64,000 bases of DNA. Origin: an uncultured archaeon. Lineage in GTDB: Archaea > Aenigmatarchaeota > Aenigmatarchaeia > CG10238-14 > SCSR01. The stretch covers positions 991 through 64,990 of the forward strand of contig CAYNTH010000002.1 in NCBI GenBank assembly GCA_964400475.1, read 5' to 3'. The notes beneath the pieces are model-generated. The model was not told the origin of the DNA and ran no database searches. It was given only the letters and a program-made list of their open reading frames with translations. Both the position numbers and the translations under genes were made by a program. Positions 25,681 to 60,813 of this stretch are shown one piece after another (position 1 is the first letter of the stretch; every line of letters begins with the position of its first letter).

Positions 25681-26118
25681 TCACTCTTCCTCTTTTATCA
25701 TATCATGTTGTGTCATGTATATTTTCATATGAGATCTACTCCTGAATTGACCTCCTTTGATTAGTGAGTAAACCTTTCTATAAGTTGCATTGTTTATCTT
25801 ATCCTCGGATTTCATTTTTTTGAGCAATCTCCTCAGCGGTCTCACAGTTTTTATCCACCTGTCTTTTCTGGATAGTCTCGCATATTTCTTACCTTTTCTA
25901 CTACCCGGTCCCCTTCTCCTTTTCTTTTTCTTGGGTTTTTTGATTTTTTCGGGCTTAGCCTTTATCTTCCCATTATTGATCAACATCTTGACATCCGCCC
26001 TTGTTATGGCTGATTCTACTTCTTTCTGGTCCTCCTTGTTCGGACTAATCCAAACTTTGGATTTTCCCACTTTCAATATATCGGCTGCGAGCCTCTTCTG
26101 GAGTTTCAAATCAGTCAT
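25681..26118 (-). CDS. rpl19e: 50S ribosomal protein L19e (eL19)
   Basis: 145 aa. [23 protein letters not shown] start and a polybasic centre. Confidence 0.9.
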
Positions 26119-51148: not shown

Positions 51149-51940
51149 GTGATAGTTATGATAAAAATAAATTCTGAGAATAACCAGAAATTGAAAAATA
51201 TAATGAAAGTTGTCAATTCTGATAAAGAATTGGAGACTACTTGGAAGTGTTCCAATATAAACGCTATCGACAGGCTTGGGATGTCCGATCACGGTCCCAT
51301 ACATATGAAGATTGTGACCAATTTCGCACTTAAGACACTCCGTTTGCTATTGAAGAGTAATGTAACACCGAGTTCTGTCGCTTATCATTCATTGGATAAG
51401 GATGATTCCGAGGTTATAGTCGTCCTGGCAGCGCTCATGCACGATTTGGGCATATCGATTCACAGGGACGTTCATGAAGAATATAGTCTATTCCTTGCGG
51501 GAAGGTTTCTTGACAAGATACTACCAGAGGTGTATGAAGATGATGAAACCAGGACTATAATAAAATCCGAGGTTTTACACGCGATAGTCGCACATTCACG
51601 AGATATCATTCCTTATACATTGGAAGGCGGTATTGTTAGGTTGGCCGATGCGCTGGACATGGAAAAGGGGCGTGCAAGGATACCTTTCAACATAGGTAAG
51701 GTCAACATACACTCTGTTTCCGCATTGGCTATAGAATCTGTCTCGATTGAGGAAGGCAAACGGAGACCGGTTGATGTCAAAATAGACATGTCCAATTCCG
51801 CTGGGATATTCCAGATAGATGAATTGTTGAAAGGTAAATTGGAAAACAATCCCTTGAAGGAACACGTTTCGATAATAGTTGAAACCGGCGACAGTGAGAA
51901 AAAAATAATCGACAGGTTCGAATTTGGTTGGGACGATTAG
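51149..51940 (+). CDS. HD-domain metal-dependent phosphohydrolase
   Basis: 263 aa. H..HD motif: DHGPIHMKIV and LAALMHDLGISIHR, later ..RLADALD... Confidence 0.75.
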   Translation: MIVMIKINSENNQKLKNIMKVVNSDKELETTWKCSNINAIDRLGMSDHGPIHMKIVTNFALKTLRLLLKSNVTPSSVAYHSLDKDDSEVIVVLAALMHDLGISIHRDVHEEYSLFLAGRFLDKILPEVYEDDETRTIIKSEVLHAIVAHSRDIIPYTLEGGIVRLADALDMEKGRARIPFNIGKVNIHSVSALAIESVSIEEGKRRPVDVKIDMSNSAGIFQIDELLKGKLENNPLKEHVSIIVETGDSEKKIIDRFEFGWDD

Positions 51941-52581: not shown

Positions 52582-52935
52582 TTATTTCTTAATATGTAAT
52601 CTATTCTCTTCCAGTCCTCGGTAAAAATCTATGTGATTGTGAAATTTATATTTTGGGTTAAGGCACACCTGTGTGAACGATCTCTGCATTTCTATCATGA
52701 AATCCATTCTGTCAGGCATATAAGATTTGTCCCATCTGACTTTTTTAGTTAATTCCTTGTAACACGGGCATTTGCTGCAGATTGAATATCTCTTCTTTTC
52801 CCATATATCACTTGCATCTTCAGGCGAGCACAGCTCCTCTCCTTTACATTTACATCCCGATTCGAACAATTTCCTTTCGTTTAATTCAAAATCTTCGACG
52901 GATTCGATGTCAAACACACTCCTTATTGAAATCAT
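52582..52935 (-). CDS. Cys-rich hypothetical protein
   Basis: 117 aa with 8 Cys (GCKCKGEELC, CSKCPCY, ..VC..). Lies between the primase and GINS genes. No family recognised. Confidence 0.45.
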   Translation of the reverse strand: MISIRSVFDIESVEDFELNERKLFESGCKCKGEELCSPEDASDIWEKKRYSICSKCPCYKELTKKVRWDKSYMPDRMDFMIEMQRSFTQVCLNPKYKFHNHIDFYRGLEENRLHIKK

Positions 52936-53008: not shown

Positions 53009-54361
53009 CTACCTATAATACTTCTTCCTTCTCTTTTTTGATTTAGATTTTTTACTGGACTTTATCCTGCCCTCTCTCTTCATCTTACGGAATGCATAAT
53101 TTATCGGGTTCTTGACCGTTATTTTGCCTGTGTTACCTTTGCATATTTCATCTGGTTTGCACACATCGAACGATTTGTAGAAATTGTCGTTATCGCAACT
53201 AGGTGGTAATAGGTTTCTATTCTGGTTGGAATGCCATCTCATCTGTGATCTTATGTAATTTCTCCCAAGTGGAGGGTAGTTGTTCTCGTTCCATTTGTGG
53301 AGCCTTTTTTCTATTTCCTCTTCTTTCCATCCCATATTGCGAAGAAAATTTATCAATATAAACACGCTTCTTTTTCTGCCATCCGATATCCCATTGAGAA
53401 TGTCTTTTACGCACGGTGGAAAATCATCTTCCAATATCTTCTTGACTTTTTTCCTTCTTTTCTTCGGTTTTGAAGTGAATTCTATTTTTCTCTTTTTGTG
53501 TTTGGACGCCCAGTCGAACGCTTCCACAACCAACCCTTCTGCATCGTTTATCTTCGGTTTGCTTATGAAGTTTGCCCCTTTTTTGGCGTTCTCTATATCT
53601 GCGTCCTTCTTTTCGAATTTGTCTAGTTCGCGCACTTTCAACGGCATGCTGATTCTTAGACTCTTCTCGTGGATGGCGTATGGTAGCCTGAATAGGTGTC
53701 TCGATCCGAATATATCCATGTCGACTACCTTGTATGGGTCTATTCCGTCTTCTCCTGCTATATCTGCAAAATCCTTTCCGACACGTTCAGCTATCTCGCT
53801 GGGTGTTCCGAAACTTATGAGTTCGTCTATAAGTGGCTCTTTAGTATACCATTGTATGTACTCTATTATCTTTTCCATTGCTTCCGGATATTGTGTTCTA
53901 ATGGGTTCCATGTTTATCTTTGACGGTAGTGATTCGAACGGTATTATTATGTGGAATGATTTTCCTCCAGTGTATTTTAGTCCATAATTACTAACACCGT
54001 GGTCGGTTACGGCAACTATTGTCTGTTTTACAAATATCTTCGCGATTTCAAAATCAGGTACATCAACGTCTATCAACACGTCCCATCCCTTGCGGATTTC
54101 ATCCAGTTGATTTTTGGTCATTCCACTTTTCAATTTCATTGGATGTTTCCATCTTTCTACAGATCCGTGGAACGATATTACACCATCTCGAACAGCTTGT
54201 TCTATATCCGCCGGGTATTGAAGTATATCAGGTCTTTTACCGAATCTTCCGTCTTTGTATATACCTGCGACTTCACGATCTTTTGTTACATCCAATATCG
54301 ACTTTTTGACATAGTCTTGAGAATAATAAGATTGTATCTTCTTGAAGTCTACCATTTTCAC
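53009..54361 (-). CDS. priS: DNA primase, single-chain fusion of PriS catalytic (AEP) domain and PriL-type C-terminal Fe-S domain
   Basis: 450 aa. AEP motifs WDVLIDVDVPD (DxD), YTGGKSFHI, VDMDIFGSRHLFRLPYAIHEKS. C-terminal about 140 aa carry 4 Cys (PPCVKD.., PPSCDND..VCKPDEIC) and PriL-CTD-like helices. Confidence 0.85.
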   Translation of the reverse strand: MKMVDFKKIQSYYSQDYVKKSILDVTKDREVAGIYKDGRFGKRPDILQYPADIEQAVRDGVISFHGSVERWKHPMKLKSGMTKNQLDEIRKGWDVLIDVDVPDFEIAKIFVKQTIVAVTDHGVSNYGLKYTGGKSFHIIIPFESLPSKINMEPIRTQYPEAMEKIIEYIQWYTKEPLIDELISFGTPSEIAERVGKDFADIAGEDGIDPYKVVDMDIFGSRHLFRLPYAIHEKSLRISMPLKVRELDKFEKKDADIENAKKGANFISKPKINDAEGLVVEAFDWASKHKKRKIEFTSKPKKRRKKVKKILEDDFPPCVKDILNGISDGRKRSVFILINFLRNMGWKEEEIEKRLHKWNENNYPPLGRNYIRSQMRWHSNQNRNLLPPSCDNDNFYKSFDVCKPDEICKGNTGKITVKNPINYAFRKMKREGRIKSSKKSKSKKRRKKYYR

Positions 54362-54462: not shown

Positions 54463-54870
54463 TCACATGATCCTTATGTTCAGTTCATCTGGTGATAATA
54501 TGCCGTACTTATTTTTGAAAGCTTCCCGCTGATAAGGTGCGAATGTACTTTCTTCTCTTATGGATGTGATGAATTTTATGACATCTATTACTCCCATATC
54601 TTTGTCGCTGTATCCCATCTCATGCAATTTTATCTGCCTGGCCATTTCATATTCCAAATCTTCGATTTCATCCACGCCCTCCACATCGCCTCTCATAGAT
54701 TTACCAGTTACAACATCTTTAACATCATCGTCTGCCCGATATTCGTTTAGTAGCGAGTTCAATATCCCGTTTCTTTTATTAATATCACCGATTAACATCG
54801 TCTTTTCGAAAAGATGTTTGTAGTTCTCTATTTTTTCCAATTTCTTGGCATAGATAAGATTTATACCCAT
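54463..54870 (-). CDS. Hypothetical protein
   Basis: 135-aa ORF with no recognisable motifs. Confidence 0.4.
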   Translation of the reverse strand: MGINLIYAKKLEKIENYKHLFEKTMLIGDINKRNGILNSLLNEYRADDDVKDVVTGKSMRGDVEGVDEIEDLEYEMARQIKLHEMGYSDKDMGVIDVIKFITSIREESTFAPYQREAFKNKYGILSPDELNIRIM

Positions 54871-54946: not shown

Positions 54947-55930
54947 ATGAAAAATTCAATGAAGGTTAATATCCATAGGGGATTTATAGAGTATGATTTC
55001 AGATGTAAAGATTCAGCTGAGGATTTCGTTTTTGTGGGCGTGCACCCAACAACTGATTTGGAATTCATACCGAGAAACGATATAGGGGCCGATCTGCTCT
55101 GTGTACAACTTGCGAGAGAGATGAATACTAGGGCAATCATAACAACTATGCCGAGAAACCAGGAGTTTGGTATGGACCTGAACAGGCTGCCTCCAGATGA
55201 AGATACCGCAATAGACAATTTTGATGGTTTCATAAACAACGAATTCGACAAAACTAGTGAATATTCCAAAAAATATGCATGGGTGGCGAGTGATAATAGC
55301 GATCATGACTCTAGGAAGAAAATATATAAAGATTTCTGGGATACCGCGCGTGGTTATGGATCGGATGAAACATGTTTTGTTTTGATACATGTCCAGGACC
55401 CAGAATTGAGGAACTTCCCGAGTTTGGTGGACGTCATACCCATATATGGATTCGACGAAGATAATGTTAAACGTGTAGTTGATAAAGTCAATGAGGAATG
55501 TTCCGAGTGTTTCGAATCAATACAACACGATTTTAAGAATTTTATAAAGTGTTATCACAATCACCATTATAAATCGACTCTCATACACAAGTTTGGTTCC
55601 ATCGTTCCCTCCAACTTTTCCGGATCTTCCGATAGAAATTATGAAAAGATGTTGGATCGTGTGAAAGATATGGGATTCGATGATATATACAATGAGTTAA
55701 GAAACGATTATACGTTTGATATACATACAGATGCAATAGAAAAAATAGCCGGATCGGTTAAACCAAGAATAACATATATGAAAAATTTCACAGGTAGTCT
55801 TGCACTAGGCACCAAAGAGGGTTTGAATGGGCGAAAAGTATTGGAAGTCGAGGTCAGTACATTCTTCAGCGAGATACACAGTGATAAGGGTACTGAGATC
55901 TTGAAAAAATTTGTGAATAATTTCTGCTAA
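54947..55930 (+). CDS. N-formylglutamate amidohydrolase (FGase)-fold hydrolase-like protein, paralogue A
   Basis: Blocks FVFVGVHPTTDLEFIP, DIGADLLCVQLA, QEFGMDLNRLPP (D-x-N-R), CFVLIHVQD, LEVEVS follow the order of FGase-family motifs. ATG at 54947 (track: TTG 54887). By-eye assignment. Confidence 0.5.
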   Translation: MKNSMKVNIHRGFIEYDFRCKDSAEDFVFVGVHPTTDLEFIPRNDIGADLLCVQLAREMNTRAIITTMPRNQEFGMDLNRLPPDEDTAIDNFDGFINNEFDKTSEYSKKYAWVASDNSDHDSRKKIYKDFWDTARGYGSDETCFVLIHVQDPELRNFPSLVDVIPIYGFDEDNVKRVVDKVNEECSECFESIQHDFKNFIKCYHNHHYKSTLIHKFGSIVPSNFSGSSDRNYEKMLDRVKDMGFDDIYNELRNDYTFDIHTDAIEKIAGSVKPRITYMKNFTGSLALGTKEGLNGRKVLEVEVSTFFSEIHSDKGTEILKKFVNNFC

Positions 55931-56808
55931 TTTCTGTGGTTACACATCCATTTGAATGTGAAATCACCCAATGCTTGTATCATTAATTGGTATGGTATCG
56001 TGGGTATCCTGTCGTCGTGTTTGGACGCTCTACCACGGAGATTCATCTCTACCTGCATCCCTATTCGTTTATCATCTTTTCCTGCTTTTTTGTTGTGATT
56101 TATGACATGCGTTGTCAGAACATGATTTTGCGAACCAGTGAATCTCCATGTAGAAACTCCTATTTTCAAATCAGCCTTGACACCGAAGTCACTGAATACA
56201 CTGTCCAAGTAATCTATGAATCTGTTCTTGAATTGGAACGCCCTTTTCTTCGAGCCTATTCCACCGTAATCTTCTCCGAATCCGAACAACATGTCGAATT
56301 TCCTTTTGCGGTTTATGCCGTGTACAGATATCACTCCCTTCGGTTCGATTTCACTTATCACTTCGTGATACCTCTTTAATTTATCGAGAAAAGATTTGTC
56401 CTTATGTATTGGTACATAAGCCGATTTGCTATCCGAATTTTTTGGTTTAACAAATAATCTCAACCCATTCCCCAGTTCCTCTGGAGGTCTCGACGCATCG
56501 GCTTTGGTTCTTACGAATTTAGGTATTAAATAAGCGGAATCGAGATAATAAGATCCCATCTTTGTCAGCACATCGGTATTCCAGTCACCCACACCGGCAT
56601 ATGCATCTTCACCATGATCCTTCAACGGTATTCTGGTTGTTTGGGCATGTTCGGCTGTGAATAATATCCTCCTTCCAGGATATTTGCGCATTATGCAGTA
56701 TTCCACAGCACCCTCGATTTCCGGTGTCATCTTCCTACTAAGGAATCTCTGAAAGGCGTCATAAGAAGCGAACAGTAGATAATTTTTTCTATCTTTCAAT
56801 TTAACCAC
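55927..56808 (-). CDS. N-formylglutamate amidohydrolase (FGase)-fold hydrolase-like protein, paralogue B
   Basis: 293 aa. ILFTAEHAQTTRIP (EHA..IP), GDWNTDVLTK, VRTKADASRP, VISVHGI, GMQVEMN follow the FGase motif order. Its stop overlaps the convergent paralogue A stop by 4 nt. Confidence 0.55.
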   Translation of the reverse strand: MVKLKDRKNYLLFASYDAFQRFLSRKMTPEIEGAVEYCIMRKYPGRRILFTAEHAQTTRIPLKDHGEDAYAGVGDWNTDVLTKMGSYYLDSAYLIPKFVRTKADASRPPEELGNGLRLFVKPKNSDSKSAYVPIHKDKSFLDKLKRYHEVISEIEPKGVISVHGINRKRKFDMLFGFGEDYGGIGSKKRAFQFKNRFIDYLDSVFSDFGVKADLKIGVSTWRFTGSQNHVLTTHVINHNKKAGKDDKRIGMQVEMNLRGRASKHDDRIPTIPYQLMIQALGDFTFKWMCNHRN

Positions 56809-56859
56809 TATTTCTGTCTGTTTATAGTAATTGGTGATGGATGTATTTGAAAATTATCA

Positions 56860-57780
56860 TCAAAATCTTATCTTGGGTTTCTTGAACCAATCTGCCACGA
56901 TTTTCTCTATTCTCGGGAAGTGTTGCATCTCGACCTCTGATTTGACGTATTCCACTATCTTCCTCGCAACATTTATTCCCAGTACCTTGGTCAATCCCTC
57001 GAAGTGTACATTTACATTCGCCTCTATCATTATGGGACCCTTCGGCCCTCTTATAACATCTACTCCGGTTATATCCATTCCCAGAGCATGAGATGCCTTT
57101 ATAGATATATCCTTTATTTTGGTGCTAATTTTCACAGGTTCTCCTGAACCACCTATACCTATATTTGTCCTGTGTTCATCGGTTTTTGCAATTCGTTTCT
57201 CCGCACCCAATACCTCTCCACCAAGTACGAATATCCTTATGTCCTCCCCGGGGTTGGGTATGAATTCCTCGAGGAAAAGAGGTTCCTTGAATCTTTCCAA
57301 AGCATCCATGAAACTCATCGCCGATTGTTTGGAGTCAGCGAACATGACTCCTTTCCCCAGACTACCGTAAAGCAGTTTCATAACAACTGGGTATTTCATC
57401 TCATCCAATAGGGTCTCTACTGTCCCTCTGGACATGGTCATTGATGTTGTTGGTACAGGTATTCCCGCCTTTTTTAGCGCCAATAAAGTGAAAAATTTGT
57501 TGTGCGATACTATCACGGAAAGTGGATCTATGGGCATATATACATCGTCTTCTAATATCCTCAATACTTTATATCCATATTCCGCATACGTTCTGGGTAT
57601 TCTCGGTATGACGAAATCTAGTTCGCTCAAGTCCGTGCCCTTGAAAAATACTTTGTCATCGTTTATGACTACCGACGGCATAGGCACATAGAAAAATTTA
57701 TCGAATATCTTTTTACCTTCTTCCAGTATCCATAATTCACAATCGCTTCTCTTCCTTGGACCAATTAAACATCCTTCCAT
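56860..57780 (-). CDS. RimK-type ATP-grasp ligase (alpha-L-glutamate ligase family)
   Basis: 306 aa. YPVVMKLLYGSLGKGV (Lys plus Gly-rich loop). EEFIPNPGEDIRIFVLGGEVLGAEKRIAKTDEHRTNIGIGG and GMDITGVDVIRGPKGPIMIEANVNV align closely with E. coli RimK blocks as I recall them. Confidence 0.85.
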   Translation of the reverse strand: MEGCLIGPRKRSDCELWILEEGKKIFDKFFYVPMPSVVINDDKVFFKGTDLSELDFVIPRIPRTYAEYGYKVLRILEDDVYMPIDPLSVIVSHNKFFTLLALKKAGIPVPTTSMTMSRGTVETLLDEMKYPVVMKLLYGSLGKGVMFADSKQSAMSFMDALERFKEPLFLEEFIPNPGEDIRIFVLGGEVLGAEKRIAKTDEHRTNIGIGGSGEPVKISTKIKDISIKASHALGMDITGVDVIRGPKGPIMIEANVNVHFEGLTKVLGINVARKIVEYVKSEVEMQHFPRIEKIVADWFKKPKIRF

Positions 57781-57783
57781 ATA

Positions 57784-58677
57784 TTACAGCCCCGGTAATT
57801 TGAATTTGAATATCTTTTTAACATGTTTGCCCCACATTTTCTCCCTTCTCTTCGATTCATCCGACATCCTGCTCATTATGTGTCTGGCTATATTCGAGCC
57901 AGTTATCTCTTGGAACCTGTTGAAGTTTGGGGTCATTACTATCCTGTCCACTATCCAGTCATCCTTTGTCTTCAACATCCTTATGGTGGCATAGTCCCAT
58001 CCCAGTTCTTTCCTGATTTTGACAGCCATTTTCTCTACATCACTTCCACCGCTCGTCGGGATATTCTTGCCATTCTTCTTCCTCTGATATCCTACATACG
58101 ATGCTATCATCTCGTCCCCGACAACGAAACACCATGTGTCTCTTTCAGCCCTTATCGGGGTCTCGATTCTTATAGGCGTTCCATACTTGTATAATGATAA
58201 AACGTCTTTCAATGTGCTCTTGCTCGTTACTTTGACTCTTTTCTTAGGCGGTCTGACTATCAACGGCAGGTCAACACTGTCGAGTATTTTGTCAACTGAA
58301 ATATCGGATGCAACCGTTATGGAATCCCTTATTGGTATACCCTTAGATCTTAAGTGATTTCTCAACAGTTCTTTGTTCATATACATCATATACTGTTTTG
58401 AATCGAATGGCATGAACGTGTCATCGAGCATCCATATAGCTGTGTAGAATATTTCAGAATGAGTTATTGTCGGTACTGGCAGCACGCAATCGAATTTTGA
58501 CAGATTTTGGTCTTCAAATTTGACCCTTATCCCATCGTTTTTCGAATCCCTTAGTATATCGAACCTGATCTGGGTTATCGGTGCGTACAGAACCTCGTCG
58601 AATTTAGATTCAGCCTCGTCTATCAGGGGTTGATCTTTTTTCTTCCTTCTCGGATCCGCGACTATCGCTATTTTCAT
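57784..58677 (-). CDS. Divergent RimK-like ATP-grasp paralogue (possibly catalytically degenerate)
   Basis: Same length and block order as the neighbour (..LPLIVRPPKKRVKV.., ..WCFVVGDEMIASYVG..TSGGS.., ..IRMLKTKDDWIVDRIVMTPNF). By eye the Gly-rich loop and the E-x-N metal motif are not conserved. ATG at 58677 (track: TTG 58707). Confidence 0.6.
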   Translation of the reverse strand: MKIAIVADPRRKKKDQPLIDEAESKFDEVLYAPITQIRFDILRDSKNDGIRVKFEDQNLSKFDCVLPVPTITHSEIFYTAIWMLDDTFMPFDSKQYMMYMNKELLRNHLRSKGIPIRDSITVASDISVDKILDSVDLPLIVRPPKKRVKVTSKSTLKDVLSLYKYGTPIRIETPIRAERDTWCFVVGDEMIASYVGYQRKKNGKNIPTSGGSDVEKMAVKIRKELGWDYATIRMLKTKDDWIVDRIVMTPNFNRFQEITGSNIARHIMSRMSDESKRREKMWGKHVKKIFKFKLPGL

Positions 58678-58733
58678 ATTATCGTTCACAATTAAACTTT
58701 TACACAACCTTTAAAATCTTTATCACAGCCGTA

Positions 58734-60432: not shown

Positions 60433-60813
60433 TCATTCTTCGCCGTACAATTCCAGGGCAGTGCTGGCAAGCTCGCTTATCTCCATGTATCTTTCTATTA
60501 TGGACCTGTATTCATCTGTGAGCATATTCACATCAGGCACCGGCCCACCCTTCCTGTTCATCATATAACTATCGAATATTTCCGATCCATTAATGTCTCC
60601 CTTTCTGGGATACCTCTTAGTTATGGCACCCATTTTTACAAGACTTTTTATTACTCTGTAAACAGTTGATTCCGGCATCTCCAGCTCTTCTTCTATTTCC
60701 CTAGAAAACATCGGTCTGTTATATTCGTATAGAAGTTCCAATATTTTCAATTCGGAATGGTTCCAAGTGGGATACTCTATTGATGTTTTAGTCTCTTCTG
60801 GGTCTGTCATCAT
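60433..60813 (-). CDS. Winged-helix transcriptional regulator (MarR/ArsR-like)
   Basis: 126 aa. ELKILELLYEYNRPMFSREIEEELEMPESTVYRVIKSLVKMGAI is a typical wHTH. Confidence 0.6.
   Translation of the reverse strand: MMTDPEETKTSIEYPTWNHSELKILELLYEYNRPMFSREIEEELEMPESTVYRVIKSLVKMGAITKRYPRKGDINGSEIFDSYMMNRKGGPVPDVNMLTDEYRSIIERYMEISELASTALELYGEE

Follow-up and report, generated by a model that had tools for sequence, protein, structure and literature searches.

The subject of this report is a group of four adjacent genes at positions 54947-58677 of a 64,000-nucleotide (nt) stretch, hereafter called the window, of contig CAYNTH010000002.1 from an uncultured archaeon; contigs of its relatives carry the label Aenigmatarchaeota. 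The locus had been singled out in an earlier reading of the DNA letters and translations (the sequence-only reading) as four adjacent open reading frames (ORFs) coding for two RimK-type ATP-grasp ligases and two hydrolases of the N-formylglutamate amidohydrolase (FGase) fold, and the four ORFs are indeed present. Three of them lie on the minus strand in the order D-C-B: gene D (57784-58677, 297 amino acids), the first gene of the operon and a predicted non-catalytic RimK-like ATP-grasp paralogue, or pseudo-ligase; gene C (56860-57780, 306 amino acids), a catalytic RimK-family ATP-grasp ligase by its motifs and a predicted alpha-L-glutamate ligase; and gene B (55927-56808, 293 amino acids), the third gene of the operon, a putative divergent FGase-superfamily metallohydrolase whose family has no Pfam model. 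Gene A (54947-55930, 327 amino acids) lies on the plus strand, convergent with gene B, and is an accessory gene that probably encodes an FGase-like hydrolase. The stop of gene D is followed after 3 nt by the start of gene C, and 51 nt separate the stop of gene C from gene B. The TAA stop of gene A (55928-55930) overlaps the minus-strand stop of gene B (55927-55929), leaving 4 nt (55927-55930) common to both genes, as the sequence-only reading had noted. For gene D the start at 58677 was preferred over a TTG at 58707 because orthologues open with MKIAI, and gene A may start either at 54947 or at a conserved Met at 54959. The G+C content is about 0.37-0.42 across the region.

The product of gene C matched the Pfam family PF08443 at E=9e-41 (140 bits against a cut-off of 21) and TIGR00768 at 193.6 bits (cut-off 143.4), and its best sequence matches in the PDB were the structures of E. 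coli RimK (5zct/4iwx, E=3e-37), with Pseudomonas RimK also at about 1e-37. Equivalents of E. coli K141, D248, E260, and N262 and the Gly-rich loop are all present in the alignment with 5zct, and the ATP lysine, the Gly-rich loop, and the Mg ligands D/E/N are kept across the aligned orthologues. The motifs that had drawn attention to the gene (YGSLGKGV, RIFVLGGEVLGAEKR, and GVDVI...IEANVNV) are all found in the translation. With the family cut-offs passed and the catalytic set in place, the earlier RimK-type assignment holds, and by its sequence gene C is unambiguously placed as a RimK-family ATP-grasp ligase with intact motifs, predicted to be the only catalytic ligase of the module.

None of the named functions within the RimK family could be transferred to gene C, which scored below the equivalog cut-offs for LysX/ArgX (TIGR02144, 152.5 against 275.6 bits), MptN (NF040720, 146.4 against 350 bits), S6--L-glutamate ligase (NF007764, 145.5 against 331 bits), and CofF (TIGR04443, 82.5 against 300 bits). 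The label 'S6--L-glutamate ligase' that JGI annotations attach to gene C orthologues is an automatic transfer, and we rejected that identity on the score and on the absence of the bS6 substrate, which is to our knowledge a bacterial protein not found in archaea. LysW-type, MptN, and CofF identities for the module were likewise rejected, the equivalog scores being too low and LysW and LysZ/Y/J/K not being found in the gene tables of the related loci, where no methanopterin or F420 partner genes were found near the module either. The module therefore maps onto none of the LysW, CofF/MptN, or S6 pathways, in agreement with the sequence-only reading.

Gene D can be aligned with gene C over its full length and falls short of the family cut-offs (53.3 against 143.4 bits for TIGR00768; 19.9 against 21 bits for PF08443), its best PDB sequence match being LysX 5k2m at E=0.007. 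Its motifs were compared in an alignment of 12 gene C and 11 gene D orthologues, with 11-14 orthologues of gene D aligned overall. In every aligned gene D four residues are missing from the Gly-rich loop (VRPPK----KRV in place of KLLYGSLGKGV), the EE(F/Y)I hinge is lost, the RTNIGIGG (R..N..GG) loop is deleted, and the Mg ligands are replaced, D by R or another residue, E by R, K, or N, and N by a hydrophobic residue; these losses hold even in the most distant, Altiarchaeota-type loci. Wherever the region upstream of gene C is visible, gene D is conserved, and it evolves faster than gene C: its orthologues are 33-53% identical to the window copy, compared with 50-75% in the case of gene C. Because the catalytic and nucleotide-binding motifs have been lost in every lineage, the alignments identify gene D as a conserved and predicted non-catalytic, or dead, paralogue of gene C and not as a second ligase. 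The proposal of two RimK-type ligases thus survives for gene C and fails for gene D, which is homologous to gene C but lacks the motifs and the scores, and the picture of a ligase and a hydrolase each in two copies is given up, since one partner of the first pair is a pseudo-ligase and, as set out below, one partner of the second is a rare accessory beside a core gene.

Gene B had no match in Pfam, NCBIfam, or PDB sequence searches, and a profile search against the PDB was likewise empty. Its family is small, comprising 40 clusters, all unnamed, in a collection of 5.8 billion proteins, and a profile search of 1.84 billion protein representatives returned 37 proteins only and no bridge to large families. 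An AlphaFold2 model built from 39 sequences (predicted local distance difference test, pLDDT, 94; predicted template modelling score, pTM, 0.92) was compared with known structures by Foldseek, in which the top match was the FGase 2q7s (E=9e-8), followed by the FGase-family structure 2odf, the phage enzyme PghP (3a9l), and M14 carboxypeptidases; 2q7s, 2odf, 3a9l, and 4b6z were all matched at probability 1.00, with template modelling (TM) scores of only about 0.5. A distant family member, P0076, which matches the gene B profile at 2.6e-11, reached 46.2 bits against the cut-off of 28.9 for the Pfam FGase family (PF05013). It is the only member to pass that threshold: four of 38 match PF05013 at E<=1, and gene B itself has no match and does not reach the gathering threshold. 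Since FGase structures are the best matches of the gene B model and P0076 scores above the Pfam threshold, we infer that gene B is a very divergent member of the FGase superfamily and a predicted active metallo-amidohydrolase; its fold is not an unrelated one, and the first assignment of gene B stands on this structural match to 2q7s and 2odf and on the sequence bridge through P0076. The poly-gamma-glutamate hydrolase family (PF05908), matched by one of the 38 members at E=0.25, does not describe it.

Across 38 diverse members of the gene B family, H54, R100, D104, H163, and E254 are invariant and D/E75 and R107 near-invariant, and in the model these conserved residues lie where strands end and in the loop that follows strand 92-96. 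The segment D104-A-S-R107 probably corresponds to the D-x-N-R motif of FGase (DFNR in P0076). Relative to the FGase and PghP structures, gene B is longer by an N-terminal helix and hairpin of about 45 residues. PghL/PghP, FGase (2odf, 2q7s), and carboxypeptidase A are structurally related, with His/Glu/His metal ligands and a catalytic Glu described, the zinc motif of PghP/PghL being H-x4-E ... H (PMC6506827). In these related enzymes the metal site, the catalytic Glu, and the carboxylate-binding Arg and Asn-Arg occupy positions comparable to those of gene B (PMC6506827).

Gene A has only four database homologues, in addition to copies in two of the surveyed loci (L010 and L020). Its match to the Pfam FGase family is below threshold (E=0.22, 12 bits against 28.9), and its AlphaFold2 model is of moderate confidence (pLDDT 71, with region 69-115 below 50) and includes a helical insertion of about 100 residues (171-270). 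The best Foldseek match of this model was again 2odf (E=0.015, probability 0.97, TM 0.38-0.48). An hhalign comparison of gene A with a widened gene B profile paired H33/H54, D45/D75, R70/R100, D77/D104, and R80/R107 at E=0.002 and a probability of only 13.6%; paralogy of the two genes was not detected by BLASTP or by a first, narrower hhalign run. Gene A is thus probably an FGase-like hydrolase, on weaker evidence than gene B: of the fold once proposed for it, the motif correspondence with gene B and the top rank of 2odf speak in favour, while the scores remain below threshold. Gene B, and probably gene A, has the motif order H ... D ... R ... D-x-N/S-R ... H ... E in common with FGase and PghP/PghL, the best structural matches of both genes, and the known enzymes of this group cleave amide bonds to glutamate; genes A and B differ from them in failing the Pfam threshold, in lacking the H-x4-E of PghP, and in carrying extra segments.

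The organisation of the locus was surveyed using gene tables of homologue-bearing contigs, tblastn, and a scan of every ORF in these loci with profile hidden Markov models for genes A, B, C, and D. The order D-C-B on one strand was found in 17 related loci in which all three genes are visible (L002, L003, and L012, which are from one organism, and L001, L004-L010, L013, L014, and L019-L022), with gene C identities of 44-79%; two further loci, L017 and L023, are truncated inside gene C. The hosts are Aenigmatarchaeota and Altiarchaeota-type genomes. Gene boundaries in these loci often overlap by at least 4 nt, and gene D is often translationally coupled to gene C. In the window, the gene for cysteinyl-tRNA synthetase (CysRS) lies upstream of gene D on the same strand, and beyond gene A lie genes for a fused-looking DNA primase, GINS, L44e, S27e, and enolase. 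In one clade the operon is flanked by CysRS, primase, and PyrI; in L002 its neighbours encode a transglutaminase-core protein and an EF1A/SelB-like GTPase, in L014 cyclophilin, NDK, DHH, and NUDIX proteins, and in L019 and L021 a P-type ATPase and an H+-pyrophosphatase. Because the flanking genes are fully different between lineages, the D-C-B trio is a conserved unit. CysRS, directly upstream in one clade only, was for that reason treated as synteny and rejected as a member of the system.

Gene A was seen only beside the operon, adjoining it in the window, L010, L020 (two copies), L022, and L023, which is every copy with visible context, and it is absent from most loci (present in five of about 19). 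The linkage of D-C-B thus held in every related locus examined, and the two hydrolases, which the sequence-only reading had treated alike, resolve into a conserved core gene B and a rare accessory gene A. This pattern bears directly on the possibility that the adjacency has no functional meaning, with synteny inherited among close relatives and genes B and A acting in pathways unrelated to genes C and D. CysRS, primase, GINS, S27e/L44e, and enolase are also syntenic among the closest relatives, and gene B stands alone in L015/L016, as that explanation would allow. It is contradicted by the loci in which the flanks have wholly changed (L002, L014, L019, L020, and L021) while the order, strand, and overlaps of D-C-B persist, by gene A staying attached in divergent contexts (L010 and L020), and by the distant gene B homologue of L018, which pairs with a different ATP-grasp gene; conservation across such contexts largely refutes this explanation, and we regard it as very improbable.

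Distant homologues of gene B, at about 30% identity, were found by a metagenome scan with a three-sequence alignment; the L017 copy follows a gene C homologue, and the L018 copy precedes a divergent ATP-grasp gene. In the Altiarchaeota-type loci gene B is followed by a fourth gene, also for a divergent ATP-grasp protein, of about 298 amino acids. These genes lie at L019:6640-7536, L021:6646-7542, and L018:2818-3723, and their products carry the Mg motif GIDF...FIEANS.PG at the extreme N-terminus and the KP.FGWGGKGV and VVN..RGG loops toward the C-terminus, an arrangement suggestive of a circularly permuted ATP-grasp fold. At L013:9032-9124, about 2 kb downstream of an intact gene B, a second match to the C-terminal 31 residues of gene B (64% identity) may be a fragment or partial duplication.

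We read the locus as a self-contained module for the ligation and hydrolysis of an amino acid, most likely glutamate, and give this reading an even chance of being correct. RimK-family enzymes use ATP hydrolysis to join glutamate, by its alpha-amino group, to a carboxylate in an amide bond. Gene C would accordingly be expected to use ATP to activate the carboxylate of an acceptor as an acyl-phosphate, to which the alpha-amino group of L-glutamate would then be added, possibly repeatedly. Gene D would form a hetero-oligomer with gene C and serve as a scaffold or acceptor-recognition subunit, with no Mg-ATP binding or catalysis of its own. The resulting X-CO-NH-Glu is chemically an N-acyl-glutamate, the bond class cleaved by FGase, and since the predicted product of gene C belongs to that class, the operon would encode a bond maker together with one or two suited breakers. 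In gene B, H54, D/E75, and H163 would hold the metal, E254 would act as general base, and R100 and R107 would bind substrate carboxylates, so that the enzyme could hydrolyse the bond made by gene C and trim or erase the modification. Gene A, confined to some lineages, may be a further hydrolase of that fold and may differ in the chain length or linkage that it prefers. As the acceptor we favour the C-terminus of a protein, by analogy with RimK and S6, and consider this the weakest step of the scheme; an alpha-linked C-terminal Glu would itself be an N-acyl-glutamate and so of the bond type of FGase, which makes the idea of a writer and an eraser chemically sensible.

Several points weigh against this scheme. 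The neighbourhood of the operon contains no conserved acceptor gene, and making and breaking one bond with enzymes of the same operon would be futile unless regulated. The substrate of the characterised FGase is a small molecule, not a protein. The stand-alone gene B homologue, seen in L015 and L016 (the same locus), has no ATP-grasp gene within 5 kb. Carboxypeptidases and PghP have a metal motif, H-x(3-4)-E, that is missing from gene B, where H54 is followed by AQTT without an acidic residue at +5, and the third metal ligand of gene B (D/E75) is one that we infer; the fold of gene A, for its part, is drawn from a moderate-confidence model and sub-threshold scores.

Some of these points agree better with a small-molecule pathway, which we consider a serious alternative, if a somewhat unlikely one. 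Gene C, with gene D, would then glutamylate the carboxylate of a metabolite or cofactor, and genes B and A would release or recycle glutamate or deacylate a precursor for gene C, the product being a cofactor tail carrying glutamate, an osmolyte resembling a dipeptide, or free poly-alpha-glutamate. The RimK family includes small-molecule glutamate ligases, among them MptN, CofF, and the RIMKLA/B-type enzymes, and the near-equal scores of gene C for MptN (146 bits), LysX (152 bits), and the S6 ligase (145 bits) do not favour a protein acceptor, although gene C lies far below the cut-off of each cofactor-ligase equivalog. A small N-acyl-glutamate is the substrate of the named FGase family, and the operon encodes no candidate protein substrate; on the other side, genes for cofactor or amino-acid biosynthesis flank the module in none of the loci, and a dedicated non-catalytic paralogue better suits, not conclusively, the recognition of a macromolecule. 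DPANN-type archaea have a reduced metabolism, and it is in archaea of this type that the module is hosted, which also speaks against a dedicated small-molecule pathway. Free poly-alpha-glutamate is a documented product of RimK itself (PMC11957791). A faint lead in favour of the small-molecule pathway comes from L016, where the stand-alone gene B lies near a gene for an MJ0619-like radical-SAM protein (HMPTM zinc ribbon) and a glycosyltransferase gene. Both are located upstream of the gene B homologue (L016:1638-3209); the former encodes a radical-SAM protein with the zinc ribbon PF23545, typical of the MJ0619 type of methanopterin methylase, and the latter a family-2 glycosyltransferase. In Methanocaldococcus, MJ0619 is a neighbour of MptN.

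The same pairing of a ligase with a metallohydrolase could also be a remnant of a LysW/AmCP-type carrier pathway, in which gene C would load a small acidic carrier, gene B would act as the LysK-like releasing hydrolase, and the other genes would lie elsewhere in the genome. LysX is the second-best NCBIfam model for gene C (152.5 bits) and a LysX structure (5k2m) the best PDB match of gene D, and the pairing of a ligase with a metallohydrolase has a parallel in LysX and LysK, which catalyse the first and last steps of that pathway. We nevertheless judge it highly improbable: gene C is below the LysX cut-off of 275.6 bits, LysW, LysZ, LysY, LysJ, and LysK are absent from the Pfam annotations of the related loci, a regular-expression scan of the window and all loci returned no acidic-tailed zinc-ribbon ORF beside the module, and the fold of gene B is that of FGase, in contrast to the M20 fold of LysK. 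What the module has in common with LysX/ArgX, MptN, and CofF is the ATP-grasp subfamily of gene C, and with LysX and LysK the pairing as such; the M20 fold of LysK and the pathway genes, which occur in none of the loci, set it apart. A role in defence was rejected as well, as none of the four proteins had a match in PADLOC-DB at E<=0.01.

Two known systems are analogues of the ligation and trimming proposed here. In eukaryotes, the tubulin-modifying TTLL ligases, of the ATP-grasp fold, add Glu tails that are removed by CCP, a zinc hydrolase of the carboxypeptidase-type fold (M14), and the TTLL family also contains catalytically inactive ligase paralogues. The kinship with the archaeal module is at the superfamily level only, the clades being different for both folds; the glutamylation begun by TTLLs is on a side-chain gamma-carboxyl, and no tubulin-type substrate is apparent for the archaeal module. 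RimK of Pseudomonas is encoded together with RimA and with RimB, a protease that removes glutamate, and the three control polyglutamylation of S6 and synthesis of poly-alpha-glutamate (PMC11957791). That operon resembles the present one in combining a ligase, a glutamate remover, and a non-ligase partner that modulates the ligase (PMC11957791), and the nearest solved relatives of gene C are RimK structures. Its eraser is a retropepsin-like aspartic protease where that of the archaeal module would be an FGase-fold metal hydrolase, its partner is not an inactivated ligase paralogue like gene D, and its bS6 substrate is bacterial, without an archaeal homologue. Both analogues support the logic of ligating and trimming, and the archaeal module would be a ligase/hydrolase modification system made from novel components, not a categorically new mechanism.

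A more specific version of the protein-directed reading, which we put forward as speculative and rather unlikely, is that the module carries out a dedicated and reversible C-terminal (poly)glutamylation of a cellular protein in Aenigmatarchaeota and Altiarchaeota, possibly one of the translation apparatus, with gene C as writer, gene D as target-selecting adaptor, and gene B, and sometimes gene A, as erasers. Tentative hints of this are the EEE terminus of L19e in the window and, in one lineage, the translational coupling of an EF1A-like GTPase gene to gene D. Reversible glutamylation is established for eukaryotic tubulin and, more recently, for bacterial ribosomal protein S6. No archaeal counterpart was found in the literature searched, nor any RimK-FGase pairing, RimK pseudo-paralogue, or description of this operon in DPANN or Altiarchaeota; the amidoligase survey of Iyer et al. 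2009 lies outside that literature. Were protein (poly)glutamylation borne out, the module would be an archaeal counterpart of RimK/RimB and TTLL/CCP made from different parts. Even with a small-molecule target it would supply a function for families now labelled 'hypothetical', and its presence in genome-reduced archaea suggests that it is useful and not dispensable. The set of three or four genes is defined and clonable and includes two hydrolase families without a Pfam model and a conserved pseudo-ligase. Work on the module would also correct the automatic label 'S6--glutamate ligase', which cannot hold in archaea.

Several proteins with acidic tails or possible links to translation were noted. 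In bacterial S6 it is an acidic C-terminal tail that RimK extends. In the window, ribosomal protein L19e (25681-26118, minus strand) ends in ...MIKEEE, a candidate acidic tail; a TrmB/MarR-like winged-helix protein upstream of CysRS (60433-60813, minus strand) ends in ...LYGEE; and an HD-domain protein of 263 amino acids (51149-51940, plus strand), which is not a zinc ribbon, ends in ...FEFGWDD. None of the three is conserved beside the module in other loci. The last of these termini loosely recalls the acidic, Gly-Trp-containing C-terminus of LysW, a likeness that we take to be coincidental. In L002 (4704-6263), and also in L003 and L012, a 519-amino-acid divergent paralogue of the EF1A/SelB-like GTPases (172 bits for EF-1-alpha, where the cut-off is 502) is extended at its N-terminus by about 105 residues; its stop and the start of gene D share 4 nt, and the transglutaminase-core protein is encoded just upstream. 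The stand-alone gene B homologue of L016 is convergent with a canonical EF-1-alpha gene. These EF1A-like neighbours may reflect a link to translation factors or may be coincidence.

Of the remaining genes around the module, the one at 53009-54361 (minus strand) encodes a protein of 450 amino acids that looks like a fusion of the small and large primase subunits: its C-terminal part (residues 293-390) has a match to the large subunit (PF04104), and the L005 orthologue has a weak match to a Prim-Pol domain. Two small ORFs near the module, at 54463-54870 and 52582-52935 (both minus strand; 135 and 117 amino acids), are without a Pfam match, and in L022 a similar unannotated gene of 118 amino acids occupies the position matching that of these small ORFs in the window.

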